Shown: piece after piece, positions 4,328 to 55,545 of the stretch | Layout of the letters: each line of letters begins with the position of its first letter | Numbering within the stretch: position 1 is the stretch's first letter | Virus record (IMG/VR): IMGVR_UViG_3300031949_000005 | Coordinates: 64,001-128,000 of that record | Source: a virus | DNA: 64,000 nucleotides | Reading direction: 5' to 3' (one strand) | Position numbers and translations under genes: made by a program | Notes under the pieces: model-generated | Databases searched by the model: none | Told to the model about the DNA's origin: nothing | What the model saw: the letters and a program-made list of their open reading frames with translations, nothing else

Positions 4328-4399
4328 TGGGCGTGGAGGGACTTGAACCCCCAACGTCCCGGTTAAAAGCCGGTTACTCTGCCATTGAGTTACACGCCC
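4328..4399 (-). tRNA. tRNA-Lys(TTT)
   Basis: Reverse complement GGGCGTG...CACGCCCA; anticodon arm ACCGG-CTTTTAA-CCGGG; GGTTCAAGTCC. Confidence 0.92.
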
Positions 4400-4403
4400 G
4401 TCG

Positions 4404-4628
4404 CTATTCTGGCAACAATCGCAATAGTTCTCTTAGAGTAAGAGATTTACCGTTTTGATGAACAAACAAAATACCTCCTCTAGTTTGTGCATACTCCTTA
4501 TCTCTCTTATTAAGGCGATTCAGAAATTCAAGAGACACAGCAAGACAAGAGCTTTGTATTGGGTGTAGATTGCCTTTGCTTATTTGCTGTTCGATTACAG
4601 TTTCACACAATTCTTTTTTGGTCAACAT
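4404..4628 (-). CDS. hypothetical protein
   Basis: ORF track; GGAG RBS. Confidence 0.55.
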   Translation of the reverse strand: MLTKKELCETVIEQQISKGNLHPIQSSCLAVSLEFLNRLNKRDKEYAQTRGGILFVHQNGKSLTLRELLRLLPE

Positions 4629-4630
4629 TA

Positions 4631-5254
4631 CTATTCTCCGTTCAAATCCAGGGTTTCAAGTTCATTCAAACCTATGAATTCGGTTCCATCAATTGTCATA
4701 TGAAAACTTGTGTGTATGTGACCAAAAATCCATAGTTTGGGCTTATGTATATACCACATGGCATCCAGCGCTTGTCCGGTACGACTTGGGTATATTCTAG
4801 TTGAACCAGTAATAATGGGAACAATACTTTGAGGCGGGACGTGAGTGATCATAGTATGAGGCTTCGTTATACCAACCATCGAATAATTTTCGACGGCTCT
4901 ATTTAGGTCCTCCAACGATATTTCCTCATCACGCCACCATGATTTTCCTTCTATTCTAAGATGTTTGTCTATACTCAAACCACCTCGTGTCCAAAAAAAT
5001 TCAAATAAATTCTTTGTTCCTGTGAAAAATCCCATTCTTCCATAATCACCGATATAATGAGGCAACTTTTTTATCTCATCATAATTATCGTGGTTTCCAC
5101 CTATGATGATATGATTACCAGAATCAACCGAATCCATGTGTTCATAATCGAAGCCCATATCGCCTATTTGAATTGTATACGGTTTATTTCTAACTATCTT
5201 GAGATATTCATTGTATTTTCCATGAACATCGCCTATTACTGTTACTGTTGACAT
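4631..5254 (-). CDS. calcineurin-like metallophosphoesterase
   Basis: GDVHG, GD, GNHD, THxPP and FGHIH motifs. Confidence 0.9.
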   Translation of the reverse strand: MSTVTVIGDVHGKYNEYLKIVRNKPYTIQIGDMGFDYEHMDSVDSGNHIIIGGNHDNYDEIKKLPHYIGDYGRMGFFTGTKNLFEFFWTRGGLSIDKHLRIEGKSWWRDEEISLEDLNRAVENYSMVGITKPHTMITHVPPQSIVPIITGSTRIYPSRTGQALDAMWYIHKPKLWIFGHIHTSFHMTIDGTEFIGLNELETLDLNGE

Positions 5255-5341: not shown

Positions 5342-5695
5342 TTATAGTAAATATGTTTTGATTAACCATCCTATAGATAAAACTAACGTTGTTCTTATTA
5401 AGGGGTAATACATTTCGCGCCATCTATATTCTGAAGTTTCCTCTAAGTGTCGTTTTAATAATTTAATTGATTTTGGATTATATATTAACGTGTTAACGAA
5501 TAATCCCAACCCCATTATTTGGAATGTATTTATTGGTGAAACCTTAATAGTCGGGACAACAAACCATAACCAACAAATAGAAAGAGCATAAGCGCGGTAC
5601 AGTATAGAAAAAAGAGTAAGGGGTATGCCTAAGACGGTGAATAATATATCCGATAGAGTTTTTACTTTAATAGTCGCATTACAATCTAATTGCAT
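5342..5695 (-). CDS. membrane protein
   Basis: Hydrophobic segments; start trimmed to MQLDC because the longer ORF overlaps tRNA-Glu. Confidence 0.6.
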   Translation of the reverse strand: MQLDCNATIKVKTLSDILFTVLGIPLTLFSILYRAYALSICWLWFVVPTIKVSPINTFQIMGLGLFVNTLIYNPKSIKLLKRHLEETSEYRWREMYYPLIRTTLVLSIGWLIKTYLL

Positions 5696-5715
5696 TTTTG
5701 ATCCTTTCATTAAAA

Positions 5716-5787
5716 TGCTCTCACGGGGACTCGAACCCCGGTCTTTGGCTTGAAAGGCCAATATCCTAGCCGCTAGACGACAAGAGC
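5716..5787 (-). tRNA. tRNA-Glu(TTC)
   Basis: Reverse complement GCTCTTG...TGAGAGCA; anticodon arm TTGGC-CTTTCAA-GCCAA; GGTTCGAGTCC. Confidence 0.9.
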
Positions 5788-6092
5788 TTTTGAATTTCCT
5801 TAATTAAAATGACACCATCCGTTTCCATCTTCGTCGTCAAAAAACCACCCAAGCTTGCTTATTCTTTCATGTTCCATCGCCGTCAATCGTTCTTTAGGCT
5901 CCTCTACATAGATAATATCGTGTTCATAATCTATACCCACTTCTGGGTCATGCTTCTCGATGATTGTTAGACCTTCGATAATCTCTACTTTTCTCCTTAT
6001 ATTTACACTTTACTAACTGAGTGGACTTTTTTATTATTAAGTGGGCGCAAGTTTAGCAATTGGCGCAATATCATAGTGATATCATATGAATA

Positions 6093-7728: not shown

Positions 7729-8225
7729 TTACTTTCTTACCTTTCAACCTAACAAGATAAAGACATGACACACACACACGACATGGTCGGCACCACCCCT
7801 TTAGGGTCGATTTTTCTAAATAAGGTCCTTCGCACAAACATCCAGACTAGCCCTACGCCCCTAAAAACCCACTTTTCCTCATTTTATAGCTCTTTATGGA
7901 CCCTATAATGATGGTATTTTAGTCCCTTAAAAAGCCTGAAATTTGCCAGAAAAAGGCGTTTTTCACGTCAAATAATAGCTAGAAACGCCAATTTCCCGCA
8001 TTTTCGATGGATCATTCCCTATTATTCGTTCAAAAAGACGATCTGTCTCGCCTAGGGATGATACTTCGCAAGCGAAAACTGGAAAAAATACATATTTTCC
8101 TTCAAGAAATTGAGTTTTTGATATGTCTTTGTAGAGAAAAAGCTTCTTTTCCACTAACTTCCTCCTTTTTCTATTCAGAAACATGGTTTTTGTATACTTT
8201 TCACGACTTTTGTGTATAAGTGAGT

Positions 8226-8789
8226 ATGAAAAAAACATGGGCAAGAGGAAAGGAGTGGTATCGTCGTCAGAGACTTGCGAGTAATCTATGTATGACATAT
8301 GGATGTAAAAACGATAGGGTAATAAATAGACAAACATGCAGAGAATGCCAAAAGAAGAGCAAGAATTATAGGATTAACAGGTCTATTAAACTTACTCAAC
8401 TTGGTCTGTGTACCAGATGTGGTCAAAATAATTATCTTGAAATATATCAAGACAGAAAGACAAAAACCAAGTTATGTGAACTTTGTTATCTCAAGAGAAT
8501 GGCTTCTCAACACCTTGGTGCGGAGAGTTACTACGTAGATTTGTTAAATCTACTTCAAAAACAAAAGTTCAGATGTGCTTATACTGGAGGTGATCTTGTT
8601 TTAGGCTTAAACGCTTCGTTGGATCATATACTTCCGCGAAAGAAATATCCGGATAAAATCAAAGATATTGATAATCTTCAATGGGTTATTCGTGATATAA
8701 ATACGATGAAATCGGGTTTCGAAGAGGAGACGTTCATTAACCTTGTTACAAAGATGTATCTATATTTAACTAAATCCAATAATTCCTAA
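8226..8789 (+). CDS. HNH endonuclease with N-terminal Cys zinc fingers
   Basis: CAYTG...SLDHILP...NLQWVxxxINxMK; opposite strand to neighbours; GTGTATAA motif at 8212. Confidence 0.8.
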   Translation: MKKTWARGKEWYRRQRLASNLCMTYGCKNDRVINRQTCRECQKKSKNYRINRSIKLTQLGLCTRCGQNNYLEIYQDRKTKTKLCELCYLKRMASQHLGAESYYVDLLNLLQKQKFRCAYTGGDLVLGLNASLDHILPRKKYPDKIKDIDNLQWVIRDINTMKSGFEEETFINLVTKMYLYLTKSNNS

Positions 8790-8793
8790 ATCG

Positions 8794-9201
8794 TTATTTA
8801 CATCCCTTCCTAGCTCTAGGATTCCTGTTTTTGGCTCTTGTCGCCTTTTGACGCATCTTGGCCTCTTGTTCTTGTCTCGCCAACCGTTCCTCTCGGCGCA
8901 ATGGGTCGGAATTTATCGTGCCTATACGAATAGACTCATTGGTGGCCAATTTACATACATTTTTGCGCGGACGACATGCAGTTTTTCTTGACTTGATGTT
9001 CTGACCATCCAATCCCTTGGTTATATTGACGAACGGACGCTTGGTGGTGAAACCATAACGGCCATCTCCGGCGACTTTATCTAAATCACCATTAGATGAA
9101 AACCGTCTACCTCCTTTTACTCTTCGAGTCCACTCTAGTCCGAGCCTGTATGTTTTGAGGAATTTTTTATCCTCTTCTGTCTGGGGTATGTTATAGATCA
9201 C
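8794..9201 (-). CDS. basic (Arg/Lys-rich) hypothetical protein
   Basis: GTG start after AGGAG; the longer ORF overlaps tRNA-Ile. Confidence 0.55.
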   Translation of the reverse strand: MIYNIPQTEEDKKFLKTYRLGLEWTRRVKGGRRFSSNGDLDKVAGDGRYGFTTKRPFVNITKGLDGQNIKSRKTACRPRKNVCKLATNESIRIGTINSDPLRREERLARQEQEAKMRQKATRAKNRNPRARKGCK

Positions 9202-9225
9202 TTGGTTTACTCCTGTTAAAAATAT

Positions 9226-9300
9226 TGACCCCACCCGGATTCGAACCGGGAACCTCGATTTTATAAGAATCGCGCTCTAGCCGACTTGAGCTATGGGGCC
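9226..9300 (-). tRNA. tRNA-Ile(TAT)
   Basis: Reverse complement GGCCCCATAGCTCAAGTCGGCTAGAGCG; anticodon arm CGATT-CTTATAA-AATCG; GGTTCGAATCC. Confidence 0.9.
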
Positions 9301-9303
9301 GAC

Positions 9304-9336
9304 TGGACCTCCTGGGAATCGAACCCATAGAGGCCC
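9304..9336 (-). ncRNA. tRNA-Ala-like minihelix (acceptor stem plus T-arm only), or internally deleted tRNA
   Basis: GGGCCTC-TA-TGGG-TTCGATT-CCCAG-GAGGTCC-A: 7-bp acceptor with G3:U70 and A73; D and anticodon arms absent. Confidence 0.6.
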
Positions 9337-9349
9337 ACTTCTTCCACTG

Positions 9350-9991
9350 TTACTGCATTCCAATACCTAGGCCGGACGGTTCATCCCAACGAATATCGCT
9401 TTCGTAGGGACGACGTGATCCACAGACACTGTTGTGATATGCGCCATCACGACTTGGAACAGGATCGTGATAAGACATCCCATCGGGATTTTTCAACGTC
9501 TGCATAATACCCCACCACAGAGCACGCTTTGCGATTTTGTCTCCGGTCCTTATGGCCTGTCGGAGATGCTCATTGTTGAAAATGAGATCGTTGGCACGAG
9601 TCTTAATATCGTACCAGTCGGGTCTAATGATTTGAATATCGACCACAGGCACTGTCGTTGCTCGATAAACAGTCACAACAGACGGATCGTCGAGATAGTC
9701 GTAACTATGATTGCCTATGATGATCCTATCTCCCCGTGATAATTGAGGCGCGATATCCATCTTGAGTTCCATCCGACAGAACTTACAGACTTCCTCGCTA
9801 TAGAGGACGAAGAAGTCATATCTCGTCACGAGAGAGTTCCCACTATCAGAATACGTTTTCGATCCACCAAAGTATCTACTCCCCGTCGGAGTAAATAAGA
9901 ATTTGGGGTGGCTAACGATTCTGTCTAGAATCCCATAAAGAGAATTCTTGATTTCCGGCATGAACGTATCGCTACCATGATAGCTCAACAT
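9350..9991 (-). CDS. putative Pol-beta-superfamily nucleotidyltransferase
   Basis: TGSRYFGG, YDFFV and a later VDIQI aspartate; the first Asp of DxD is not obvious. Confidence 0.5.
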   Translation of the reverse strand: MLSYHGSDTFMPEIKNSLYGILDRIVSHPKFLFTPTGSRYFGGSKTYSDSGNSLVTRYDFFVLYSEEVCKFCRMELKMDIAPQLSRGDRIIIGNHSYDYLDDPSVVTVYRATTVPVVDIQIIRPDWYDIKTRANDLIFNNEHLRQAIRTGDKIAKRALWWGIMQTLKNPDGMSYHDPVPSRDGAYHNSVCGSRRPYESDIRWDEPSGLGIGMQ

Positions 9992-10010
9992 GGTGATCCC
10001 CTTTCCGGCG

Positions 10011-10412
10011 CTATTGCGCCATTGCCTTTTTGATGAAGGAGCACGCAGACATTAAGTCCTCTTCGCCATTAAGAATATTGACGAGGACTTCTCGTTTCCT
10101 AGAGTCGAGTCGGTGTAGAGACACTCCATTAGCCACTTCTTCGATAGCTTCACGGAAGAGTTGGTGTGCGGTTTTTTTCTCCTTTGTCTGGACGAAAGTG
10201 AATTGTCCAGTCTCGTCACGAGAGAGTTCCCACTCCGAAGCAATGGCTTTTACTATCATCGCCACATCCGGTATTGTTAGCCAGACACGATCGAAATTCT
10301 GGGTTATACTTACACCACCACTAGAATTCTTTGGATCGGAACTTACTTCGAAACCATCGGTGAAGTTATAACTTCTAAGACAATACATCACACAATCTCC
10401 TCTAACGGCCAC
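10011..10412 (-). CDS. hypothetical protein
   Basis: 133-aa ORF on the operon strand. Confidence 0.55.
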   Translation of the reverse strand: MAVRGDCVMYCLRSYNFTDGFEVSSDPKNSSGGVSITQNFDRVWLTIPDVAMIVKAIASEWELSRDETGQFTFVQTKEKKTAHQLFREAIEEVANGVSLHRLDSRKREVLVNILNGEEDLMSACSFIKKAMAQ

Positions 10413-10576
10413 CTTTTCAATTGCTTGCCGCGCATCTCCGGGTGTGCTTTCCGTAACTCTCGACGCGCCACATTCCTCGTCTTGGTTTGCGGATTACGAT
10501 GCCCCTTCGGATTGTTCGACTTCTTCGATTTTTTATCTTCCTTCGACGACATTTTCCTCTTCCTTTCGTTCGACTT

Positions 10577-10837
10577 TCATGTTTTCTGACTCTCGTGACT
10601 ATGCAGTGAACACAACCTACAAATCATGCCATTTTCATATTCTGCGTGGTCGAAAGATGGCCAGTGACACAATAGACATGGTAAATTGTCAAATCCCGTT
10701 ATCCCCATCTTGTCGGCACATTGACCACATACAAATCCCGCACTGTCTAGAACCGAATGATCATCGTGAAACCCTGTCTCTTCTTCGCATATGATACACG
10801 AAGGCATTACTACTCCGGTTTCTTCGTTAAGAAACAT
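10577..10837 (-). CDS. Cys-rich (zinc-finger) protein, paralogue of 1058..1384
   Basis: AAGGAG RBS before MFLNEE; four CxxC pairs. Confidence 0.65.
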   Translation of the reverse strand: MFLNEETGVVMPSCIICEEETGFHDDHSVLDSAGFVCGQCADKMGITGFDNLPCLLCHWPSFDHAEYENGMICRLCSLHSHESQKT

Positions 10838-10863
10838 GGTTGTCTCCTTACGTTTGGGGTTAT

Positions 10864-10935
10864 ATCCCATACTAGGATTTGAACCTAGATTCACCGTGTT
10901 GTCACAGTGCGTCTTACCAATTAGACTATATGGGA
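10864..10935 (-). tRNA. tRNA-like RNA with non-canonical anticodon arm (identity undetermined)
   Basis: TCCCATA/TATGGGA acceptor, GTCT-AATTGGTA-AGAC D-arm, CTAGG-TTCAAAT-CCTAG T-arm; anticodon arm CACTG-TGACAACA-CGGTG (8-nt loop, no U33). Confidence 0.75.
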
Positions 10936-10937
10936 TA

Positions 10938-11842
10938 CCAGCGTGAACACGCCAGAAGTGGCCACAATATCGCCGACTAATCCGCTTGTCGATTAGTAAC
11001 GAGATTGGTTCGCGGGCCTTTATAGACTAGAAGCGACGATAGATACGACTACCGCGCTACTATTTATTTGTCTCGTGGTGTCATTTCGGAGTACCATCCT
11101 ATAAGGTAAGCGCTAACTCACTCCCATAGGACGTATCGGTAAACTAAGAATTGCTAGACGGTACGGCGCTATCACCAGACCCGATAAGGTTGCGAGGCTT
11201 ACCAGACCCTTAGTTCCGACGCGCTATGGCCTAGGTTTACGGAGTTACACCGACAACCTATCCCCACCACAATTGCACTTATACTGTAACATATCCGACT
11301 AGACTTGCGTTAGATATGTTCGCGCGACAATTCTTATCAGGATTCTCACCGTATAGTCGCGCCATGTCTGATAAAACCATTTCGGTATGATACGATTGCA
11401 GGATAGTTTATTCCGACAAGCGCTATTCGCCACCGAAGCGCCCTTCGGTATTCTTGCTAAGCGCGCGGACTACCTACATCGTCCCATAACTTGTGTGTTA
11501 TCGGACGTATAAGCGTATACCGTTATATCGGCTAACGCGGGAATTATCGGACGCCTAATTCTCGGACCCTCTTCCCGAACTCCGATAATAATTTCGGGAG
11601 TTAGACCCTGCAAACGAACTAGGTCTTATAACGATGTTTCCCTATCGTTGACGGATTAGCGCGGACTATGCGCTCTCCCATTCTTATACAGCCCGATAAT
11701 AGGCCGTAATTCCGCATAAGACGCAACGCGAACAGCGCGTCTATTTAGTCCGAAGTTATCGGACGCATCGAATATGCGGCGAGGCGCGCACTACCGGACG
11801 AGGAGAATCCGATAATGCGCGATTGCGCCGGATACTCTGGTG
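10938..11842 (-). ncRNA. candidate giant structured ncRNA (~900 nt)
   Basis: No ORF of 60 aa or more within it in six frames; more than 15 helices found by eye, some nested; imperfections are G:U on the minus strand. Confidence 0.65.
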
Positions 11843-12163
11843 TTACTTCTTGCCGAGCTTTGCGAAGCTCGACTTCAATTTTGACGCACCTTGCCGACGG
11901 TTGAGGATAGCGTCAGCGACACCCGCTCCGTTATCGGAGCCGAAGCCTCGATCCGACGGCGGGGTATATCCCGAACCGTTTTCGGACCATTGCTTCAAAC
12001 TCTCAATCACGTCAAGCGCTTCGGCGATTGCATCCTCTCGCTCATCCTCGGCCTTCAGCGCGATTGCATCGACGAGCTTCTTCGTGTCGGAATACCGACC
12101 AGCATCGTCAAGAAATCGTTGCGCATCGAAGGCGACCTTCGGCTCCATCGTACCAGTTGCCAT
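11843..12163 (-). CDS. hypothetical 106-aa protein directly upstream of the candidate ncRNA
   Basis: AGGAG RBS; GC-rich codon use; own promoter. Confidence 0.75.
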   Translation of the reverse strand: MATGTMEPKVAFDAQRFLDDAGRYSDTKKLVDAIALKAEDEREDAIAEALDVIESLKQWSENGSGYTPPSDRGFGSDNGAGVADAILNRRQGASKLKSSFAKLGKK

Positions 12164-12256
12164 AGTAGACTCCTTTAGGAAGCTTCCTATGCGCTACCAG
12201 ACGATAGCACACGCTACCATCCGATAGCGCGTCAAACAAGTTTTTTGCTACATCAT

Positions 12257-12285
12257 ACTATAGCCTCCGGATTGTCAATAGTCAA
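12257..12285 (-). promoter_or_regulatory. sigma70-type early promoter
   Basis: TTGACT-17 nt-TATAGT on the minus strand. Confidence 0.65.
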
Positions 12286-12745
12286 GAGACTTGAACAAAT
12301 TATTTTTAGGTCTTATAATAAGGCACGACATAGAGTGTATATACAATAATAGTCGTATCCTATAATATATCACACTACTCAACAATAATAAGGATTTTAT
12401 TGACCGCGACCGATAAAAGCGCCCCTCGCGTTATTCCGCTAGTCCTATAATATATCACTTTTCTTGTCATGCTACACCATATTATTAGTATCGTCCTATA
12501 AAACGCTAATCCGATAATATCAAATAATGTCCCCGCGATAAACAGGCTCTTGTGTTATTATAGGATCGGTTCGATAATTGCTCGTAAAATCGCACGCAAA
12601 CATAATGATAATAAGCTAGGTCCGATAATCGCAGTTTTAGTAGTGATTGTAACAATATAGAGAGTTTTTGTCCGATAAAACAATCGGATTTTACCACATT
12701 CCGATAATAAAAAGAAGTGTTAGCGCTAAGGTTTTAAGCCAAAAT

Positions 12746-13990
12746 CTAATCTCGGATACCATGTCCGATAATCCTTCCATTGTATCCCTGTGCTCTTATT
12801 CGTCCGATAAGGCCAAAGAGCGCGTTATCCTTCCCGTCCGCAATATAGGACATACCTTCCAGCGCGTTATCATCGTCAAGGTACACCCGCGCTGTATAGG
12901 TGCCTTCGCCGATATGATCGGTTGCAACATAGAGCATTATAAGACCCTCCTATCCGTCGATGGTTATCGGATTCTTCCGTCCGTCAAGAGCGCGTCTATC
13001 CGCTTCGTCCGGTCCCTTGCGCAATTGCCCATACCATCCGGTCCGTGCTAGATTGTCCGATAATCTCTTCGGCGCTTCGTCCGGATTGAACGTCATTGCG
13101 CACGTACCATAATACTTCGAATGGAACGGTCCGGAAACAAACGCCAGCGTCAGATAACCGATTTGCTCGGTCTGGTAATTGAGAGTTTTCCGGCGCTTGA
13201 TTCTGGCAAGTATGGCTTCGCCGAAGGCAATTCGATACTTTGCACGTCTGATAATTGCTCCCACGATTCTTCTCCTTTATCGGACCAACTGAAGTTTGTT
13301 CCAATAATCCATTATTTCCGCTGCGCGGCTCCATCCTACAGGAAGCATAAGGTTATCGGTCGCGTGGGGTTCCCTGGTTTCGATAACCCTTCCGCCCCAT
13401 AAACTCGTGATATATCGGACCGCCGGTTCAACGTACGTTATCGGTACAATCATGTACTGGTTGCGCCTAGGCCCACGTCCTAGGCCGTCCCTATACGTAA
13501 TGAGAACCCGTTGTATGTACCCCATTGTACGCTCCTCGCTACCGATTGTCAAGCGGGAAAAACCGAACCTGTACCCCATCCGGTCCTATATCGTACGGAC
13601 CAATACAATGTCCAATAACTCCTTGAACGTCCGTATCCTCGACCCATTGTCCGTCCGATAAAAGAACCCGGTCACGTTCCGATAAGAAACCGTTGGCTAG
13701 ACCGATAATTGTTTCGGTGTGGTTATCGACACTAACGATGTCTCCAATACAGACTATCATTACCGGACTCCTTGCAGTGTGCTAACCCGTAGATTACCGG
13801 ACACACTGTCATATCCGATAACCTTGCTCGTACCGTCCGATAACGTAACCAGCACAGGCCCATCATCGTCCGATAGCGTATAAGCCGCCGTACGTCCGCT
13901 TGCCAGTGCCACCTCGTCCGATAACCCCTCGTAGAAGCTCGGTCCGATATTCTCCGAACCGGGGATATACAGTCTAGTTGTACCGAACAT
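12746..13990 (-). CDS. operon of five small early proteins (12746..12937, 12950..13264, 13277..~13525, 13539..13760, 13760..13990)
   Basis: Co-oriented ORFs with GGAGG/AGGAG RBS; GC-rich. Confidence 0.65.
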
Positions 13991-14002
13991 TGAAGCCCTC
14001 CT

Positions 14003-14074
14003 TTACGTTAACTCCCACCATACCTTGGCCAGTCCCATAACCACCATCGCCACGGCTAGACCGATAAGTGTCAT
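14003..14074 (-). CDS. 23-aa hydrophobic micro-protein MTLIGLAVAMVVMGLAKVWWELT
   Basis: Hand-translated; starts 1 nt after the previous stop; below the ORF-track cutoff. Confidence 0.45.
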   Translation of the reverse strand: MTLIGLAVAMVVMGLAKVWWELT

Positions 14075-14075
14075 A

Positions 14076-14216
14076 TTATCGGCCTTCACAATCGTTGTTA
14101 TCGGAACACAAGAAGTAACCGCCCGATGGTCCGAGAACACCAACACCCTCTTCCGTCAGATAAAACTTGCACCCGCCGCACGCCAGCAACAAAAGTCCCA
14201 TAAGTAAACGTTTCAT
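14076..14216 (-). CDS. 46-aa putative lipoprotein MKRLLMGLLLLACGGC...
   Basis: Hand-translated; AGGAGG RBS; signal peptide with lipobox-like Cys. Confidence 0.6.
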   Translation of the reverse strand: MKRLLMGLLLLACGGCKFYLTEEGVGVLGPSGGYFLCSDNNDCEGR

Positions 14217-14231
14217 CGTACCCTCCTTTTG

Positions 14232-14357
14232 TTATCGTCCGTACCGATTCGTTGCCAATCCGAAGGCATTGAAAACCAGTCCGATAGTTGCTAGTGCCAT
14301 AACCATCGCCCCGATGTAAAGCCCGTTGTTCGTTAGTAGGTTAATGATCGTTTCCAT
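14232..14357 (-). CDS. 41-aa single-pass membrane protein METIINLLTNNGLYIGAMVM...
   Basis: Hand-translated; first ORF after the 14407-14435 promoter. Confidence 0.55.
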   Translation of the reverse strand: METIINLLTNNGLYIGAMVMALATIGLVFNAFGLATNRYGR

Positions 14358-14406
14358 TGTCCTGTCCCTTCGTTATAAGCCCTTGTTATCCCCTTACCAC
14401 GAGTAT

Positions 14407-14435
14407 ATTTTAGCATACCGATCGGCAAGAAGCAA
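14407..14435 (-). promoter_or_regulatory. sigma70-type early promoter with extended -10
   Basis: TTGCTT-17 nt-TAAAAT with TGn before the -10. Confidence 0.6.
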
Positions 14436-14882
14436 GCCCGAAGGAAAGAATCTTTTTTTAGTCCGATAAGTTAAGATAGGTAGGATAGTCTGATAAATAG
14501 AAGATAGATATATAGTCCTATAGCTTAGTCAAGCTAGGTTCCGATAAGTATAGTATGATGATAGATAGGTTATAGGAGCTTAGCATAGATAGTCTGATAA
14601 TTGGAGGTCCGATAAGGGGAGTGGGTATTTTATGTTATCGGAGCAAGGCGGAAGGAACGTCCGAAAACGCGGGGGCCTGCATTCGCACCAAGACCCCAAA
14701 ACCCATCCATACTATAAAATCGGATCACTTGTTTTTATCTAAAGCTCCATGGCCTCATATCACAAGAAAATTTTAAAGAACATCTTGGCTGTTGCTATAT
14801 TGGTATGAGGTTTAGCGGTCGGCGCTCTTTCCAGGGATATCACGACTAATACTCGTGGTATTCCAATTGTCTTGGGGAAAAT

Positions 14883-16111
14883 ATGTCAGCAATCATGCCT
14901 ATATTGGTTTCGTTAACAGTATCAATAACTGTCTTAATGACATATTATTATTATTTGAAAGTATTATATTCCAAAATTGATATAAGACATAAATTATCAG
15001 ATTCTTTTTTCAAATATTGGTCAATAGACAAATTTGCAAAAGATATTGTTAGATTAAAACGATTTAAAGATTTAAGAAATTATATAGAAGATAATTACAA
15101 GTGGGAAATTTGTCACTTTCAGAAAATGAATGACGATCTTGAACATATATTTTATATTAAAAAGAATACGGTATTATCGTGTCCTTTCCCTATCAAACCT
15201 GATAATTATAGCAATATGCAATTATCTTTATTTATAGCCCATATATTAATCGAAGAGAATTTAATTTTTACTGAATTCTATCAAAATTTCGTTGGTTATT
15301 TAAACAGGAGAAAACATTGAAGCAAATAGAAAAGAAAAAACGAGTCTTTAAAACCATTACGAAAGAAGATGATAGACTTTACGCCAAAAATGAACTGATT
15401 TGCCCAGAATTATTGGACGAACTCCACGATACGGTCGAGGAACTTAACTTTCTCTGTCGTGCTAATACTCCTGTAAAAGATAAAGGATACAGAATAGATA
15501 AAAAACAAAAGAACCAATTGTGTAAAACAATATCCTCAACTTTAAAGGAGATTTTTGAACTATGAGTAATTATTTAATAGAAGGTATTATCGGAACATTA
15601 ATGGGAGAATACGGAATTGTTAAAGTTCTAGAAATAGTTGATGAAAAATCATATCATCATATAATACACAAGGGTATTAAAAATACAATATTAGAATTTA
15701 ATACGTATAACAAAAATTTACCAAAACTAGATCATACATCCTGTTCATGCCCTGGTTGTACTGGTCGTGGATAAAATCATGATAACTTATACGAGAGAAA
15801 AATTTTGTCGTGTATGTTCTCCTATTTTAGAAGATTTTGGTCAAGGTATAAAAATATCTTGTCAGGCTACTTTAAATAAAAAATATTGTGATTTTAATAT
15901 AAGTGATTGTTATGTATTTTATAAAGATATAGTAGAATATTACAAAAAACTAAAATCCTTTTACACGAGAATAGGAGACATGGATTATGTCAATAAATTA
16001 CCAGATGTAGAAAAAATTATAAAACGTGTCTGTTGTTTTTATCAGCCGACAAATGCTACTAATAAAGAAATATATGATGATGTTGTAGTGAATATAGAAT
16101 TATATAGTTAA
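14883..16111 (+). CDS. four hypothetical proteins (14883..15320, 15317..15565, 15562..15774, 15767..16111)
   Basis: Overlapping start/stop codons; AT-rich. Confidence 0.6.
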
Positions 16112-18023: not shown

Positions 18024-20307
18024 TTCCAAATTAAGAGAATATGCTAAAGCCTTGATAGATAAATTAGAACTAATGCATAATGCTCCTTCGTATACGAGAG
18101 TTTGGAAAATTGCTGCTATACATGGTTGTATTTATTATGGTCCATATTATGGAAAAGAATTAGAAGATCTTAAAAAGGAGATAAATAATGTGGGTTAGAA
18201 TAGATTTTAAAGATGGCGATAGCAAATTATATGATATACCAGGAATTGATACGCTTAATCCAGCTACCGATGAACTCATAAGATGGATTAAAGAAAAAGA
18301 AATTATTAGTATTGATAGATCATTAATAATATTTCCTCACGGTAATCCACAAAAAATCTCAGCGGCACAAGCAAAAGATTTGAATCCAGTATTCGGTGTA
18401 TGTAAAGAAGAATTTATTAATTGTGGAGAAATAAAATCATTTGGAATAGTAGACACCTCAAGCGAGATATGGGAAAAATTATGTGCCCCAGCCCTTGGAG
18501 AGAAAACGATATTAACGCCAAATAAAAAGCTTGAGCTACCGTGAGAGAAGAATTAAGGGCAATAACGATAAAATCCTTGTCGGGCCATTCCGATAACTTT
18601 AAAGAAGAAGTTTTCGCTTTAATGAAATGTGCTGCTCACAAAGGAGAATATTCACTAAAATTAATAAGATTTGATACAGAATTTTGGATGTCCTTTTTTG
18701 AAGAATTAAAAACAAAGGGCTTAAATATTAATATTAAAAAAATCGTAGAAGATACTAGTAGTAATTTGCCGCATAGAATAGTGGTTAGTATTGATTGGAG
18801 ATGATATGAAGGGTAAATTTTATATACAATTAAACAAAAAGGGATGTCAATCTAAAGATCCGGTTTTAATCGTTGGTTACGTTAATTTAAAAGATAAAAG
18901 ATTACATATTTTCGATGATAACGATAATCTTAAATTTGAGATGTTGGTTTTTGATATAAATATCCATCAAGATGGAATAATGTTTATAGGTATTGAAATA
19001 GGATCATCTGATGAATTGTATTTTCAGAAAGTTTGGTTTTTACCGAAAGGATTTGATAATGAAAGTCTATGAACAAATGGTGCGTTTTGTATATAATAAA
19101 TTCGTAATTAGATGTTGGGTTCCCGCTTATACGTCGGTGGGGTTATCGGACTTAGAAACAAAGGAATTGGTTCGTAATTGTTTAACGATACTTGGTAATT
19201 TGGAACAAGAATATCCTCTTCAATTAGCAGAATGTATTTGCGATAAATTCCACATGAATGCCTGCGAGGTAACAGAAAAAGAAACTGGTTGTGGCGGCGT
19301 GTTTTATAGGGAGTGGCCGTAATGTGTGAGTGTGGTTGTATTGCTACGGGCCAATTTTTTAAACTAAAAGGGCCTGATAAGAAGATATATGTTATACAAC
19401 GATATCCTGGATGTAAATCTTGTTCTACTCCTTGTGGGGTGATATTTTCTGAAATAAGTAAAGATCATTCTGATTTTAGTTATTATAATGATCTTTCGCC
19501 AATATGTGCGCAAAAGGAAAATGATGTTATATCTTTCTTCTCACAGGAGGATTTAAAAATAAAATTAAAAAGATATCTTATCGAATATTTTAATAATAGG
19601 GAATTTTCAGCAGGAGAACAATGTTATGATGAATGTGATGCCGATATCATATCAGAGGAATTTGCGGAGGAATTTTTTAATGAAAAATAAATTAATTGGT
19701 TTATTGCTTTTATGTTGTTTGGGATGCGAATATACTAAAATAGAAACCAGTGAAGTAATGGTTGAAAGGGCTGTCGTGGATCAATTAATTTTTTCTCCGA
19801 GTCACCATGATAGCAACTTTAGTCCTGGTCTTAGTACAGGTGGGGATTTAACTTTTACCGTAACGTCAGTAGATATTCCAGAAAAACATGGAGTAATTTT
19901 TAAATGTCGTCATGGTAAATTCTATATTAGTAGGAAGGAATTGTGGGAAAATTTATCACAAGGCGATTGTGTAGATATTCAATATTTAGAAGTATATAAA
20001 GTATTATACGATAGCGAAGGCAAAGAACTTAAAAGAGCTTTAGTAGATTATGATTTTATAGGCGCAGAAAAGAGGGATTGTGATGACCGATAAAGAAAGA
20101 CTAGATTGGTTGGAAGAACAAAATAAAAAAGCAAGTTATACTGGTAAATGTAGGTTTCGTTGGTCTATTACTGGTCGCGGATGGAGATTACACGAAACAA
20201 GTTCTTATGAACTAGATAGAGTTGGTCTGAAACATGGTCCATTTGCTACGGTAAGAGAAGCAATAGATTATGCGATAGAAAATGATAAAGAAAATACTGG
20301 GGTTTGA
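18016..20307 (+). CDS. run of small hypothetical proteins, including a probable lipoprotein (19680..20093)
   Basis: Contiguous overlapping ORFs; MKNKLIGLLLLCCLGC lipobox. Confidence 0.6.
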
Positions 20308-22813: not shown

Positions 22814-23020
22814 ATGTTTAGATGGTTCGAAGATTTAAAAAATAGTATAGCCGATCTTTTTAAATCAAAAGCTACTATTAGAAAAGATGGTACGGCGAGT
22901 AAGCCATATTGTGTTTATAGTATGAGTGGTAAAAATATGGGATGTTATAAGACAAGAAAAGGCGCAGAAAAAAGACTTGCCCAGATAGAAATGTTCAAAC
23001 ATATTAATGAGGGGAAATAA
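22814..23020 (+). CDS. small conserved phage protein
   Basis: GKNMGCYKTRKGAEKRLAQIEMFK motif recognised from phage proteins. Confidence 0.55.
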   Translation: MFRWFEDLKNSIADLFKSKATIRKDGTASKPYCVYSMSGKNMGCYKTRKGAEKRLAQIEMFKHINEGK

Positions 23021-23477
23021 TATGGATTTAATGCCGTTCATTTTTGCTGTTGTTATAGGATTAGTTGGTTTTGTTTTTATGTATTTAAAAAATAAACAAT
23101 ATGATTTTTATTTAGCAGGACCAATGCGTAATATTAAAAATAATAATAAGAAATCTTTTGATGATGGCTCTCTGGCTTTAAGGAATATGGGATATACGGT
23201 ATGGAACCCATCAGAAGAAAATGATAGCAAAGATACTACATTTGAAGAATGGATGATTAAAGATTTAAACCAAGTTATAAATAAATGTAAGAGGATTGCA
23301 TTATTACCAGGATGGAGAGATTCTATCGGCGCAAATGTCGAGGCTATGACAGCCTTAGTATGTAATAAAGATATTTATGAATTAAAATATAGTAAGAAAA
23401 ATAAGATATGGAAATTAAATTATATCAAGAATCTTAATTATTGTCTACCATTTAATAGCACTGCCAAACGACTTTAA
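23007..23477 (+). CDS. DUF4406 / nucleoside deoxyribosyltransferase-like protein with N-terminal TM segment
   Basis: YLAGPM, NPxE, LPGWxxSxGAxxE. Confidence 0.7.
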   Translation: MRGNNMDLMPFIFAVVIGLVGFVFMYLKNKQYDFYLAGPMRNIKNNNKKSFDDGSLALRNMGYTVWNPSEENDSKDTTFEEWMIKDLNQVINKCKRIALLPGWRDSIGANVEAMTALVCNKDIYELKYSKKNKIWKLNYIKNLNYCLPFNSTAKRL

Positions 23478-28197: not shown

Positions 28198-28743
28198 ATG
28201 ATAAAAAATTCATTGATGGAATTAGCAATACCAATAATAACAAAAATAGCAAAACTACATAGAAAATCAAATATTTTTGCATATTATACAGAAGATGACA
28301 TAGAACAAGAAATATGGATTTTATGTTTAGATGCATTAAAAAGATATATTAAAAATCGAGGCAATTTAGAACATTATTTAAATACTCATGTTTCTAATAG
28401 ATTAAAAAATCTTAAAAGAGATAAATATTATAGGCCAGATGATGATATTTCTGTAAACAGTAAATCAAGACAGCGAATGAATTTGATTAATGCTTTACCA
28501 ATAAATATAATAAAAGATTCGACTAGGAATCGGTTATTAGCTTCTTCAAGTTCTTCTTGTGTAAATAATCCATCCGATATTTTGACATACTATGAGACAA
28601 AGAAATATCTTGAAGATAATATACCGATAGATTTACTATCATCTTTTAATGAACTAATATCTGGTAATAAAATACCAAGATCTATTTTAAATAAATTAAG
28701 GATAATTGTTGTGAAGATTCTAAAGGATAGAGAAAGTGGCTAA
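28198..28743 (+). CDS. RNA polymerase sigma-factor-like protein (region 2)
   Basis: EDDIEQE..I.CL.AL.RY...LEHYL...V.NRLKN.KR; first gene of the late module. Confidence 0.6.
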   Translation: MIKNSLMELAIPIITKIAKLHRKSNIFAYYTEDDIEQEIWILCLDALKRYIKNRGNLEHYLNTHVSNRLKNLKRDKYYRPDDDISVNSKSRQRMNLINALPINIIKDSTRNRLLASSSSSCVNNPSDILTYYETKKYLEDNIPIDLLSSFNELISGNKIPRSILNKLRIIVVKILKDRESG

Positions 28744-30602: not shown

Positions 30603-31101
30603 ATTATGTATTCCTACATATACTGTTCTTAGAGATTCCAGAGAGAAAGAAGGACATGGATGGGAATTTAAACAACATAAACCAGAAAAGCGTCCACCGA
30701 GATGCGAAGGAATGATTATTAGTACACTTAAAACAGGAGATTATTCTCTTTTGAATTATGAAGATCTTTTAGTTATAGAGAGAAAACTTGATTATTCAGA
30801 ACTATGGGGTAATTATGGTAAAAGAAAATGTTTTGAAGAAGAATGTGAACGAATGCAAAGTATTAAATATAGGTATATAATTATAGAATCTCATTTAACC
30901 AGCGATGTGCTTAGTCTCTCTCCACCACAATTTTCAAAGGGTGTACCAGGACGTGCGTTAATTAGCTGGCTTTGTAATTTATCTTTATCATATGGCGTAC
31001 ATATTATTCCTGTTGGATCTTGTGGTAAGAAATATTGTCAATTAATCTTTGAAGAAGTGGTCAGAATAGAAAGAGATAGATGGACAACAAATGACAACTA
31101 A
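30589..31101 (+). CDS. ERCC4-domain nuclease
   Basis: DSRE, LKTGDYS, IERK motifs. Confidence 0.85.
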   Translation: MFMSRLCIPTYTVLRDSREKEGHGWEFKQHKPEKRPPRCEGMIISTLKTGDYSLLNYEDLLVIERKLDYSELWGNYGKRKCFEEECERMQSIKYRYIIIESHLTSDVLSLSPPQFSKGVPGRALISWLCNLSLSYGVHIIPVGSCGKKYCQLIFEEVVRIERDRWTTNDN

Positions 31102-34100
31102 AAATATTATAACATTACAAGATTTAATGGAAGGAGACGAAGGTAAGTACGCATATTTATTTCCTTATAGAGATCGTATACCGGAAGTACAAAATCATAT
31201 TTTTTCTGATATACAAAGATATAATCAAAGTATGGATAAAATAATTATTTCTAATATGTTAAATATTGATTATATCGGATGGACAGCTAAAGTTCTTCTT
31301 GGATTAGATCTCTTTCCTATTCAAATAGCAATGATTCAGACTTTATGGAAAACTCCTTTCCCTATGGTTGTAGCAGCAAGAGGAGGAAGTAAAACTTTTA
31401 CTCTTGCTGTTTATGTTGTATTAAGAGCATTATTAGAACAAGGAACAAAAATTGTTATCATTGGAGCAGGATTAAGACAAGCAAAATTAGTTTTCAATTA
31501 TATAGAAAATATATGGAATAATTGTTCTGTTCTAAGAAGTATAGTAGGTGGTGGGAAAAAAGGTGGACCAAGACAAAATGTCGATTTATGTTATTTTAAT
31601 ATTGGGGAATCTAGTGTTGTGGCGCTGCCTTTAGGCGACGGCTGTGCTTCAAAAAATACAGCAATAACTTATTTTGATAGATTTGGTACTATATCAGATT
31701 ATCAACCTAATCATATTATTGATAAAAATATTATAAAAAGAAATGAATCAGTTTGGGGAAATGGGAATTTTAATATATCTGATGAGTCCTATTGTAATGG
31801 TTTGCAAAAAACTAAAAAAATAAAAACCCATAAAGGATTTGAATTTGAAGCTACCCATAATCATAAACTTAAAATTTTAAGAAACCATGAGATAATTTGG
31901 ACACGTATGGATGAAATGCAAATTGGTGATAAAATTTTAATAGATAGAACACATAGGTGGCATAATGGTAATACAAATATAGAAAATGAAGAATCTTATG
32001 CTCTGGGATTATTAATTGGTGATGGATCATATACAAATCCATATACTATTGGTTTTGCTACACAAGACCCGGAATTGGCCCATGCTGTTAAAAAAATTGT
32101 GCCGATCAAACAAAGTAATTATCAAAAAGAATATGACAATAATCATTGGACATATCATGGCAAAGAAGTGATATCGTGTATATTTAATCGTTTCGGGATA
32201 TCTGACTATAAAACAAAAGATAAACAATTTCCATCTGAAATTCTTAGATCCTCAAGAGAAGTTACTTCAGCATTTATTTCTGGACTTTTCGATACAGATG
32301 GCTGCGTACAAATATCTACTGCTAAAGGCGGTATTGCTATTACTGTTAGTTTTTGTAATACAAGTAAAAGACTAATAGAGCAATTACAATATATATTGCT
32401 ACATTATGGAATAGTCGCCTATGTAACTTCCAGGAAAAGATCAGAAAAATGGGAAAGATGCTATGAATTGATTATTACAGGTAATGATGTTCTTAAATTT
32501 GCTAATGAAATTGGATTTAGACTTAAAAGAAAACAAAATAAATTATTAAATGCTATTGCTAATAAAAAACGATGGATGAATCACGGCGACGAAGTTCCAA
32601 ATATTTTACCATTGATGAGAAATATATCTAAAGACAATAAGGCTAAAAAAGGATTAATGAAAACATCATCTGTTTGTTATAAGAGATTATTGGGTAAAAA
32701 AACTGCTAGTAGACCTCTTGTTAATAATTTTCTTAGAATATATGGTAATATAAAAAATAATAACATTGATATTATACGAGGTTTAAATAATGATAATATA
32801 TATTATGACGAAATAGTAAGTATAGAAGATTCTGAATGTGTAACTTTTGATATTCATGTTCCAGATACTCATGAATATTGCGCGAATGGATTTTATAGTC
32901 ATAATTCAAAAATTCGTGGTTTCAGAGCGAATATCATCATAGCGGACGAATTTGCGTCCATCCCAGAGGATGTATTTGATATTGTCGTTAGAGGTTTTGC
33001 TTCTACTACAAAATCTCCGGTGGATGAAGCAAAAAGACTTGCTTTTCAAAAAAGATTAGCAAATATGGATTTACCACAAGATGTTAAAAACGTTATACAA
33101 GAAAAATCGCCGACTGGTAATCAGATAGTTTATTCTGGGACAGCATATTATGCTTTTAATCATTTCGCTAAAAAATTTAAAATGTGGAGAGAAATTATTC
33201 AAAGCAAAGGAAATGTTAACAAAGTTTCTGAAATCTTTGGTGGTTATACATCTATACCAGATAATTTTAATTATAAAGATTATGCTGTTATTAGAATTCC
33301 ATACAATTATTTACCAGAAGGATTATTGGATCAAAGACAATTAGCGCATGCGAAAGCTATGTTACCAAAAAATATTTTTCTTATGGAATATGGTGCGATA
33401 TTCGTTGCGGATAGCGATGGTGTATTCCCCAGAAGCTTAATAGAGGCATGTAGTGTGACACCCTCTAGACCAATTCAAACAGCAGATGGAGATGTTATTT
33501 TTACTCCAAGAATGTCTGGTGATTCCAAATTAAAATATGTGATGGGAATAGATCCTGCTGCCGAACAAGATAAATTATCTATTGCTATTATAGAAATTTG
33601 GCCTAATCATTATAGAGTAGTTTATTGTTGGTCTATTAATAAACAAGAATTTAGTAAGAGAAAGAAAAATGGATTTGTTAAAGAAGATGATTATTATACA
33701 TATGTATGTAATAAAACAAAGGATTTGATTTCTAGATTTAATATAATTAGGATAGAAATGGATAGCCAGGGCGGTGGATATCCTATATCAGAAATGTTAA
33801 GAAATAAAAAATTACTAGATAAGGATAAAAAAGATTTTCCTGTATATGAAATAATAGATAGAGATAATCCTCAATATACAGATGGAGAAGTAGATGGCCC
33901 ACATATATTGAATTTGGTTAAACAAAGTACAGAATATAATTCTTTGGCTAATATGTGTTTGCATAAAAGTTTTGAAACTAAAAGGCTCTTATTTCCAGCA
34001 TTCGATACAGTACAAATGTATTCTGCATTAATGGCTGAAATAGCCCTGGAAGTAAAAATAGATACATATGAAGAATGTGTCAATAATATAGAAGAAATGA

Positions 34101-34453
34101 AAAATGAAATATGCACAATACAAGTAACCGAAACATCTACTGGCAAAGAAAGATTCGATACCCCTAATGTTTCTCAACCAGGATCTACAGAAGGAAGATC
34201 TAGAAAAGGTAGATTACGGAAAGATAGATATACATCATTATTAATAGCCCATAAATATATATACGACAATGATGTTAAGGTTGATTTACCAATAGATTAT
34301 TCTGATGTTGTTGGTAATGTAAAAAAATATAGCCAAACTAATGAAAAAGAAGGTTTATATAGAGGTCCAGGTATGGGAAGAATGAAAAATGGTTCTGACT
34401 GGATGAATAAAAAGAATTCGTTTGGTGCTGTAAAAGATAGGAAAAAAATATAA
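31091..34453 (+). CDS. terL: terminase large subunit with intein
   Basis: ARGGSKT, IRGFRA..IIADEFA, GIDPA nuclease motif, KDRY; upstream of the portal. Confidence 0.88.
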   Translation: MTTKNIITLQDLMEGDEGKYAYLFPYRDRIPEVQNHIFSDIQRYNQSMDKIIISNMLNIDYIGWTAKVLLGLDLFPIQIAMIQTLWKTPFPMVVAARGGSKTFTLAVYVVLRALLEQGTKIVIIGAGLRQAKLVFNYIENIWNNCSVLRSIVGGGKKGGPRQNVDLCYFNIGESSVVALPLGDGCASKNTAITYFDRFGTISDYQPNHIIDKNIIKRNESVWGNGNFNISDESYCNGLQKTKKIKTHKGFEFEATHNHKLKILRNHEIIWTRMDEMQIGDKILIDRTHRWHNGNTNIENEESYALGLLIGDGSYTNPYTIGFATQDPELAHAVKKIVPIKQSNYQKEYDNNHWTYHGKEVISCIFNRFGISDYKTKDKQFPSEILRSSREVTSAFISGLFDTDGCVQISTAKGGIAITVSFCNTSKRLIEQLQYILLHYGIVAYVTSRKRSEKWERCYELIITGNDVLKFANEIGFRLKRKQNKLLNAIANKKRWMNHGDEVPNILPLMRNISKDNKAKKGLMKTSSVCYKRLLGKKTASRPLVNNFLRIYGNIKNNNIDIIRGLNNDNIYYDEIVSIEDSECVTFDIHVPDTHEYCANGFYSHNSKIRGFRANIIIADEFASIPEDVFDIVVRGFASTTKSPVDEAKRLAFQKRLANMDLPQDVKNVIQEKSPTGNQIVYSGTAYYAFNHFAKKFKMWREIIQSKGNVNKVSEIFGGYTSIPDNFNYKDYAVIRIPYNYLPEGLLDQRQLAHAKAMLPKNIFLMEYGAIFVADSDGVFPRSLIEACSVTPSRPIQTADGDVIFTPRMSGDSKLKYVMGIDPAAEQDKLSIAIIEIWPNHYRVVYCWSINKQEFSKRKKNGFVKEDDYYTYVCNKTKDLISRFNIIRIEMDSQGGGYPISEMLRNKKLLDKDKKDFPVYEIIDRDNPQYTDGEVDGPHILNLVKQSTEYNSLANMCLHKSFETKRLLFPAFDTVQMYSALMAEIALEVKIDTYEECVNNIEEMKNEICTIQVTETSTGKERFDTPNVSQPGSTEGRSRKGRLRKDRYTSLLIAHKYIYDNDVKVDLPIDYSDVVGNVKKYSQTNEKEGLYRGPGMGRMKNGSDWMNKKNSFGAVKDRKKI
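31643..32905 (+). mobile_element. intein (421 aa) with LAGLIDADG endonuclease
   Basis: G|CASKNT...ATHNH...LGLLIGDG...ISGLFDTDG...FDIHVP..HEYCANGFYSHN|S. Confidence 0.93.
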
Positions 34454-41373: not shown

Positions 41374-41392
41374 TTATTGTGTATAATGATTA

Positions 41393-41773
41393 GTGAAAAG
41401 TATTCAAAAACGAGTTTGTGACTTATATATTAAAGAATATTTATCTTGTTCTGATATATCATCTCAACTTAATATTTGTCAAGCCACGGTTTATAATATA
41501 TTAAAAAATAATAATATAATCCTTAGAGACAAATCTACCGCAAATAAAATATTTTCTGACGATCTATTAATTAAGCTATACAACATTGGTTTGTCCTGCT
41601 CACAAATAGGAAAAGTATTAGGTATTCATCCCAGTACTGTTGTTAAAAGATTTCAAAAATGTGATTTTCCACTTAGAAATAAAAACCTCTCGCATCAAAT
41701 TAAATATTCAGAAGATGAATTCAATAAATACTTTATGTGTTCTAGCTTTATGGATCTTATTAAACAAGGGTAA
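41393..41773 (+). CDS. double-HTH protein
   Basis: LY....LS..I...L.I...TV twice. Confidence 0.7.
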   Translation: MKSIQKRVCDLYIKEYLSCSDISSQLNICQATVYNILKNNNIILRDKSTANKIFSDDLLIKLYNIGLSCSQIGKVLGIHPSTVVKRFQKCDFPLRNKNLSHQIKYSEDEFNKYFMCSSFMDLIKQG

Positions 41774-41776
41774 TAT

Positions 41777-55426: not shown

Positions 55427-55450
55427 ATAGTACAACAATAGTATAAAGAA

Positions 55451-55480
55451 TAGGGGCCGGTTATCCGGCCTCTATTTTTT
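55451..55480 (+). terminator. intrinsic terminator
   Basis: TAGGGGCCGG-TTAT-CCGGCCTCTA-TTTTTT. Confidence 0.8.
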
Positions 55481-55545
55481 TAAAAATAATCATCTTTTTC
55501 CTAATCAAATTAAAAAAGAAAATACTTCATGTGATATGATATAAT

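Follow-up and report, generated by a model that had tools for sequence, protein, structure and literature searches.

What keeps one short DNA word at high density in a single small block of a large phage genome, and what might read it there? The question arises from a 64,000-nucleotide stretch of the IMG/VR virus record IMGVR_UViG_3300031949_000005 (bases 64001-128000 of 167,640 bp, hereafter called the window), in which exact copies of the octamer TCCGATAA crowd into positions 11498-14642, equivalent to 75.5-78.6 kb of the record. The supported core of our answer is that this block is a cis-acting, selection-maintained and polar array of independent 9-bp sites, which lies on the first leftward operon of the phage.

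Exact searches find 36 copies of TCCGATAA in the whole record and 33 in the window, of which 25 fall within the block and the remaining eight in the other 60 kb, the same counts that an initial annotation of this DNA had given; most of the positions it listed are also correct, two being slightly displaced (13836 instead of 13835 and 14608 instead of 14588). The density of the word is thus 7.9 per kb in the block versus 0.067 per kb outside, a difference of approximately 120-fold. Dinucleotide shuffles of the window produce 3.3 ± 2.0 copies, with a maximum of 9, while the in-block Markov expectation is 0.1-0.5 copies for orders 0-2 and 4.6 copies for order 3, against the 25 observed. Since the count outside the block over the whole genome (11 observed vs about 8 expected under Markov orders 1-4) matches the composition expectation, the enrichment is strictly local, with no genome-wide excess. 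One-mismatch variants of TCCGATAA, also reported as abundant, number 40 in the region of 11-15 kb as compared with about 1-2 per kb elsewhere, and the exact copies occur on both strands (17 plus and 8 minus). No word of 11 or more bases spanning the motif recurs in the block and the flanks of the copies lack homology, so the array has not arisen by duplication. The array ends around 14.7 kb, at the switch of coding strand and drop in guanine-plus-cytosine (GC) content where it had been said to stop; the strand switch, at ~14.4-14.9 kb, coincides with the genome-wide minimum of cumulative GC skew and is the place from which the two gene arms diverge.

The word is also written into proteins. Twelve of the 25 copies lie inside small minus-strand open reading frames (ORFs, 1,851 bp in total), in several frames and both orientations, and encode peptides such as LSD/LSE, IIG/LIG/VIG, SDN and NPIT. 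Shuffling synonymous codons within these 1,851 bp predicts far fewer copies than the 12 observed (1.2 ± 1.0, with a maximum of 6 in 1000 shuffles), and therefore the word is imposed on the proteins, as the initial annotation had proposed when it placed selection on the DNA. Low-order composition, duplication and codon usage do not account for the block.

The island of a close relative, represented by two contigs of another sample with 72-82% nucleotide identity, retains 15 of the 25 sites in place, whereas about 2.6 would be expected (P about 1e-9); 10 sites have been lost and 11 have been gained elsewhere, for totals of 25 and 26. Site number has been held constant because losses were balanced by gains, and the alignment shows that individual sites are under purifying selection while their total is under stabilising selection. 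Five further relatives (120-166 kb, 41-50% GC), the major capsid proteins of which are 64-72% identical to that of the window, each concentrate the word in a single block of 2.6-5.2 kb having the same synteny, with 50 copies in G005, 23 in G003 and 21 in G002; in G003 and G005 the block again lies at the minimum of cumulative GC skew. A search with the alignment of Fam1, a 106-residue protein encoded under the array (11843-12163, minus strand), retrieved 15 loci. Twelve of these, the five relatives among them, carry 15-52 copies of the word in the 5 kb upstream of Fam1, in the first leftward operon and beside the strand switch and GC-skew minimum, and in the other three the array is shorter and degenerate, being composed of CCGATAA and GTCCNATAA words; none of the 15 presents a different word at the equivalent place. 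The synonymous-shuffle test, the positional conservation with turnover and the presence of the array in related loci together indicate that selection acts on the DNA word.

A broader search of viral contigs for runs of three copies gave at least 119 loci, many of which are simple tandem or coding repeats. Among the matches listed, approximately 30 are dense irregular arrays, and a subset of the loci codes for collinear homologues of the small proteins present in the GC-rich island that houses the block (8794-14700); this subset comes from the phages with major capsid proteins 64-72% identical to that of the window. The corresponding scan of a genome collection for motif triplets yielded nothing but unrelated repeats, including tandem ones that encode Ser-Asp, all outside the GTCC context.

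Alignment of the sites extends their consensus to GTCCGATAA(Y), namely GTCCGATAA followed by C or T. No second conserved element is present within 45 nt on either side of the aligned sites, no helical or codon periodicity is seen in their spacing, and the minimum spacing is 15-18 bp, features that indicate small independent sites. The substitutions found in the variants follow the pattern of a protein-DNA contact map, with position 4 and the first base tolerant and positions 2, 5 and 7 hardly ever changed. The sites also have a preferred direction, for 16 of the 19 copies between 12510 and 14642 of the window are on the plus strand and read as TTATCGGAC on the coding strand of the leftward genes. 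When the operon sites of seven family members are pooled, with the direction of transcription taken from ORFs only, 144 of 166 share the same orientation (144 vs 22, 87%; p = 4e-23).

The operon that bears these sites runs on the minus strand from 14357 to 12746 and consists of tightly packed small ORFs (14232-14357, 14076-14216, 13760-13990, 13539-13760, 13277-13579, 12950-13264 and 12746-12937), with 11 motif copies inside them; the ORF at 14076-14216 is lipoprotein-like and 46 residues long. The operon is preceded by the divergent intergenic region 14358-14882, which encompasses the strand switch and GC drop, contains four exact sites plus two GTCTGATAA variants and is presumed to be the promoter region of the leftward operon. 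On its other side lies an AT-richer intergenic region of ~580 bp (12164-12745), situated upstream of Fam1, which has recurring GTCCTATAAT boxes in addition to four exact sites and, on either strand, matches to sigma-70-like promoters, and across which the orientation of the sites changes. Of note, GTCCTATAATATATCAC occurs twice in this region (12355-12375 and 12440-12460) and corresponds to the array word with T at the tolerant position, a change that produces a perfect TATAAT box.

A binding-site array, as the initial annotation had suggested, is still the best reading of this block. Our preferred account, advanced tentatively and with somewhat less than even confidence, is that the array provides docking sites for one sequence-specific protein that exerts orientation-dependent control on transcription of the early operon. 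Each site would dock a single copy of this DNA-binding protein, with sites spread over the promoter region as well as the genes of what is presumably an early operon, the first leftward one of these phages of ~120-170 kb. The array itself, with its maintenance by selection, polarity, conservation and position, is established, and it is the protein reader and the transcriptional output that belong to the interpretation. Sites in the divergent promoter region might then function as operators and those inside and between genes as roadblocks, the outcome being that the early operon is shut off, or gated. We infer the orientation dependence from the fact that about 87% of the sites face the same way relative to the direction of the operon; the presence of sites in the divergent promoter region as well as in gene bodies lends further support to the docking account.

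The nearest parallel is found in Cluster A mycobacteriophages, the monomeric repressors of which bind more than 20 asymmetric sites with an orientation that follows transcription and matters for function (PMC9283540). The stoperators recognized by L5 gp71, Bxb1 gp69 and the TipsytheTRex repressor (PMC9283540, PMC6550527) share with our array a number of copies above 20, an asymmetric site that lacks a dyad partner, an orientation correlated with transcription and a location in promoter regions as well as downstream of them. However, the site is 9-12 bp long here and 13-14 bp in Cluster A, and the array is confined to one operon of 3-5 kb whereas L5-type stoperators are distributed genome-wide, mainly in short gaps between genes. 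Moreover, 12 of our 25 sites are within ORFs and the same word is present also in unrelated phage groups. Unlike the Cluster A phages, no homologue of an immunity repressor, integrase or other sign of temperate life was found here. Early-gene octamer arrays of GTTTAAAC and TTAAGACA have a different word; no gene of the SprT type occurs here, and no protein family was seen to travel with the array. A literature search with the motif strings returned primers only.

The unrelated groups in question deserve a closer description, with the family of the window taken as group A. Group B comprises contigs of 42-98 kb and 50-54% GC that have, among the matches listed, at least two tight intergenic ACGTCCGATAAT arrays, each made up of two consecutive blocks of sites with opposed orientations. 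The arrays lie on either side of a DUF7178 gene, at a distance of 4-8 kb upstream from the terminase gene, and are paired at G008:5045-5474 and 7889-8081, G009:54777-55064 and 57508-57659, and G010:10279-10705 and 14471-14918; the conserved DUF7178 gene is bracketed together with a 55-residue zinc-ribbon ORF. Group C consists of T7-type podophages of 44-50 kb and 53-59% GC, in which a GTCCGATAAC array separates the terminase gene from the beginning of the early genes. Neither BLAST clustering nor 442 family hidden Markov models revealed a protein family that all three groups share. Some families are shared pairwise, namely DUF7178 by B and C, DUF4406 by A and C, and an AAA+ ATPase and NT5C by A and B. 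Because no family is common to the three groups, the reader should be one of three things: a host protein whose specificity has stayed the same in hosts of widely differing GC, a small mobile protein diverged beyond detection, or a different protein in each group.

Several of these observations weigh against the docking account. The word is invariant in three unrelated groups that range from 31 to 59% GC and lack a common protein family, a combination that is more readily explained by a highly conserved reader of the host than by a repressor of the phage. The word in groups B and C forms tight, two-orientation, non-coding blocks, unlike roadblocks, and the rule that sites follow transcription, valid in the family of the window, does not hold in the arrays of group B. 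Half of the sites in the window are within coding sequence and the array is local, again unlike L5-type stoperators. The few sites downstream of Fam1 have mostly the opposite orientation, even though the genes there are still leftward. Finally, the ten ORFs of the island contain no recognisable reader in Pfam and PHROGs, the sole match being a sub-threshold DUF4428 zinc-ribbon for 10577-10894, and searches with Foldseek and VIA using the models of Fam1 and Fam0 gave nothing above noise.

The candidates for a reader are Fam1 and Fam0, both encoded inside the array, as well as the divergent sigma factors of the phage itself. Fam1 is found in all 16 related loci and an exhaustive search collects 73 clusters of it; its AlphaFold2 model is all-helical, with a predicted local distance difference test score of 87, and those of its distant homologues that come with DNA lie on contigs of less than 2 kb. 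Fam0 (12950-13264, minus strand, 104 residues with an invariant GPF motif) is present in 13 of the 16 loci and absent from two of the three that have degenerate arrays. Its AlphaFold2 model shows an alpha-beta-beta-beta-alpha arrangement with weak resemblance to double-stranded RNA-binding domain (dsRBD) and HicB-like folds (Z about 5), below the noise level of the tool. Neither protein has a match in PDB sequence profiles or the ESM Atlas and, judging from the present models, neither would be assignable as a DNA-binding protein.

The three sigma-70-family proteins are small (181-204 residues) and are encoded at 28198-28743 of the window (plus strand), G000:153808-154422 (minus) and G000:25022-25576 (minus), with orthologues in G003. 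The protein of 204 residues has weak FliA/WhiG- and SigB/F/G-like matches, that of 184 residues weak SigB/F/G- and WhiG-like matches, and that of 181 residues, encoded just upstream of the terminase and structural genes, a sub-threshold match to Sigma70_r2 alone. Also noted are a multi-copy family resembling homing endonucleases, with C-terminal helices of the HTH_7/sigma-r4 type, which occupies nine places in G000 (among them 4351-4851, 18279-18827, 33092-33625, 41366-41884, 55138-55674, 157290-157835 and 162663-163343) and has a copy beside the array in G003 (5381-5845), and a protein of 422 residues combining HNH and helix-turn-helix (HTH) elements that follows the major capsid gene (40105-41373 of the window).

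Among alternative explanations, the one that survives best, though we regard it as unlikely, is that of an array for replication origin or partition, in which iteron-like sites would dock an initiator or centromere-binding protein on the sides of an AT-rich unwinding region from which replication would proceed bidirectionally. In each of the three family genomes examined (complete or large), the array is indeed located at the minimum of cumulative GC skew and at the strand switch, and every relative has a dip in GC of 300-400 bp inside the array, just upstream of Fam1, across which the orientation of the sites flips. Opposed blocks of sites such as those of groups B and C are typical of initiator sites, and the non-coding parts contain quasi-tandem runs with a spacing of 23-27 bp. 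Yet the skew minimum may reflect divergent transcription alone, and the number of sites, 20-50 over 3-5 kb and through genes, is far above that of known iteron origins. The sites also lack helical phasing, no gene of the initiator, ParA or ParB type is seen beside the array, and the centre between the opposed blocks of group B is not AT-rich. Origins based on iterons or initiator sites are exemplified by the type I octamers of phage P4 ori/crr and by oriL/oriR of SPP1. These origins resemble the present locus in having short words in direct and inverted orientation, an AT-richer region and a GC-skew minimum, but our array has ten times more sites, is kilobases wide, runs through genes, is irregularly spaced and has no adjacent initiator gene.

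The sites also resemble the -10 element of promoters of the sigma-28 type, and could in principle be read by an RNA polymerase holoenzyme carrying either host FliA/SigD/WhiG or a group-3-like sigma factor of the phage, an interpretation that we consider distinctly unlikely. It might take the form of a battery of -10-only promoters, a sink for sigma or RNA polymerase, or sigma-dependent pause sites, and an 8-bp stand-alone promoter has a precedent in the late promoters of phage T4. The resemblance is close, since CCGATAA matches seven of the eight bases of the sigma-28 -10 consensus GCCGATAA, which includes the extended -10 GC (PMC12784957). FliA specificity is broadly conserved and mostly determined by the -10 region, and intragenic sites have been proposed to titrate the factor (bioRxiv 10.1101/188474); this conservation would explain how one word recurs in phages of very different GC. 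The genomes of the family do encode two to three proteins of the sigma-70 family, one of which shows the weak FliA/WhiG- and SigB/F/G-like matches just described. Moreover, the core CCGATAA is identical in the two elements, both of which are written into coding sequence as Ser/Ala-Asp codons; the array site differs in having T as its first base and an extra conserved G ahead of it.

In the array sites of eight genomes the base before CCGATAA is T in 75-100% and G in 0-14% of cases, while sigma-28 needs G. The TAAA of a -35 element is absent at the right distance (14-16 nt upstream), there being no upstream information in 100 + 74 + 27 aligned sites, and matches to the full sigma-28 pattern number 0-4 per genome. 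If taken as promoters, the sites of group A and of G006 would drive antisense transcription of the local genes, and the spacings of 14-25 bp in both orientations that are found in group B are unlike those of promoters. Groups B and C yielded no sigma gene, and upstream of the remaining genes of the phage the word is at chance level. From the presence of T instead of G, the lack of a TAAA -35, the antisense direction and the close spacing in group B it follows that the array sites are not sigma-28 promoters. The broader possibility that GTCCGATAA arrays are a device by which unrelated phages capture RNA polymerase via a FliA-like (group 3) sigma factor, either sigma-28 of the host or, in the large phages, a divergent one of their own, we judge improbable. 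If true, antisense -10-only elements in the early region would switch off the early genes and redirect transcription into the next gene block, and the capture could possibly drain the flagellar sigma factor of the host.

A partial resemblance to the res half-sites of serine recombinases (TGTCYNNTA) was considered as well and discarded, given that the sites here lack a conserved 5' T and are not arranged as inverted pairs of fixed spacing. The gamma-delta res half-sites that we read from plasmid F are TGTCCGATATTT, CGTCCGAAATAT and GTGCGATAATTT; in the array sites the base two positions before TCC is rarely T. A reader of the resolvase type was likewise rejected: HTH_7 domains are confined to the paralogues resembling homing endonucleases and are absent from G006.

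The strong polarity on the sense strand raises the question of whether the word acts in RNA, for instance as UUAUCGGAC words in early messengers that would be recognized by a nuclease or an RNA-binding protein, or that would pair with complementary GUCCGAUAA words in a structured RNA just downstream. The stretch in question is an ORF-free segment of 905 nt (10938-11842, minus strand) with five exact sites, mostly in the opposite orientation. Its minus-strand RNA has a predicted folding energy of -336.7 kcal/mol versus -285 ± 8 for shuffles (z = -6.5; plus strand, z = -3.0), and the word is there mostly in the complementary orientation and partly within predicted helices. The stretch aligns to a relative at E 4e-242 within a block of 82% identity, while the adjoining Fam1 is just 58% identical as protein, and it is partly conserved in L294. 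It is a candidate for a large structured RNA, and the weak dsRBD-like fold of Fam0 would suit an RNA-binding role, even if that match is below the stated noise level of the tool. Against a function in RNA, the arrays of groups B and C hold both orientations in short non-coding blocks, the downstream stretch of most relatives has few or no sites, and the tolerance of any base at position 4 fits protein-DNA recognition better than base pairing. Overall, action at the level of RNA appears very unlikely.

Next to this stretch lies a tRNA-like gene (10863-10936, minus strand) to which ARAGORN assigns a four-base anticodon (acaa) and no amino acid, and which the Rfam transfer RNA model scores at 47.9 bits. 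Across 8000-15500 of the window Rfam recognizes two tRNA genes and nothing else, with no match for the ORF-free stretch.

The initial annotation had described the array as the leading region of the genome, possibly marking the DNA that is injected first. A mark of the genome end, which would protect DNA by Chi-like switching of RecBCD/AddAB or by coating, or else serve packaging, is in our estimation a very remote prospect. It draws on the position of the group C array between the terminase gene and early genes, where ends of the T7 type lie (a layout inferred from T7), on the arrays of group B lying 4-8 kb upstream of the terminase gene, and on the strong polarity of an 8-9-mer, as in Chi. 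T7 itself reportedly has short-repeat arrays (SRL/SRR) next to its terminal repetition. These are similar to the group C array in placing a short word in the zone of the concatemer junction between terminase and early region, but their word and length differ and they are not known to extend through genes.

In the phage studied here, however, the block sits in the middle of the 167.6-kb record, the array is 16.5 kb away from the large terminase gene, which lies to its right, and an unbroken Logan contig of 118.7 kb from the source soil run starts at 10211, crosses the island and continues into the AT-rich right arm with uniform depth, so that the notion of a leading region finds no support in this family. 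Nor is there support for a genome end from relatives, since the only one flagged with terminal repeats (G003) has a 127-bp assembler k-mer overlap. The contigs of G001, G002 and G004 do end inside the array, yet these ends look like assembly breaks because that of G004 is a 23-bp tandem repeat of the site. Chi-like protection seems less likely on the grounds that Chi words differ between bacterial groups whereas this word is invariant across phages of 31-59% GC; eight sites per kb also far exceed what Chi needs.

An artefact of local composition, recent duplication or chimeric assembly, which might be suspected from the location of the block within the only GC-rich island of the genome, has a negligible probability in view of the Markov and shuffle controls, the lack of flank homology, the absence of copies from the GC-rich left part of the island, the Logan contig that bridges island and right arm, the finding of both in a second soil study and the presence of the array in many relatives. 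The island itself (8794-14700) has 46-48% GC in a genome of 31% GC and is wider than the array, its left 2.3 kb being devoid of copies. A chimeric assembly of the island is excluded by the Logan contig, which bridges it, and by the second soil study, where pieces of both island and flanks recur at 99-100% identity. It is common to the close relative, in which the flanks have 37-41% GC, and matches the overall GC of the distant relatives (41-50%); it may be a module that family members have exchanged, or else a segment that has resisted the AT drift of this lineage.

Other features of the region merit a brief record. The left edge of the island is abutted by a gene resembling HNH endonucleases (8220-8789, plus strand), with several CxxC pairs and on the strand opposite to its neighbours. 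A repeat of ~30 bp containing CTCGTCACGAGAGAGTTCCCAC is found at ~9820-9845 and 10211-10240, within two different minus-strand ORFs, and the Logan contig of the source run begins exactly at its second copy. Further to the right, the ORF at 31091-34453 (plus strand, 1120 residues) matches the terminase large subunit at residues 301-450 and 605-908, with HNH/endonuclease matches in PHROGs overlapping residues ~297-496, which suggests a terminase interrupted by an intein or endonuclease. Genes for DUF4406 (nucleoside deoxyribosyltransferase-like; 23007-23477 of the window, plus strand) and for an NT5C deoxynucleotidase (G000:27042-27662, minus strand) hint at chemistry of the nucleotide pool or of DNA modification in all groups that bear the array.

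Experimental work on dense, polar arrays of a single asymmetric site has dealt mainly with temperate mycobacteriophages of one group. The comparable array described here is confined to the first operon of large, apparently virulent soil phages and is written through coding sequence, so that a DNA signal shapes small proteins by way of recurrent Leu-Ser-Asp and Ile-Gly codons. Its recurrence in two unrelated groups of differing GC would imply either a very conserved host reader or a small mobile reader undetectable by sequence, and the identity of this reader would reveal a control step of early infection that is common to phage families.

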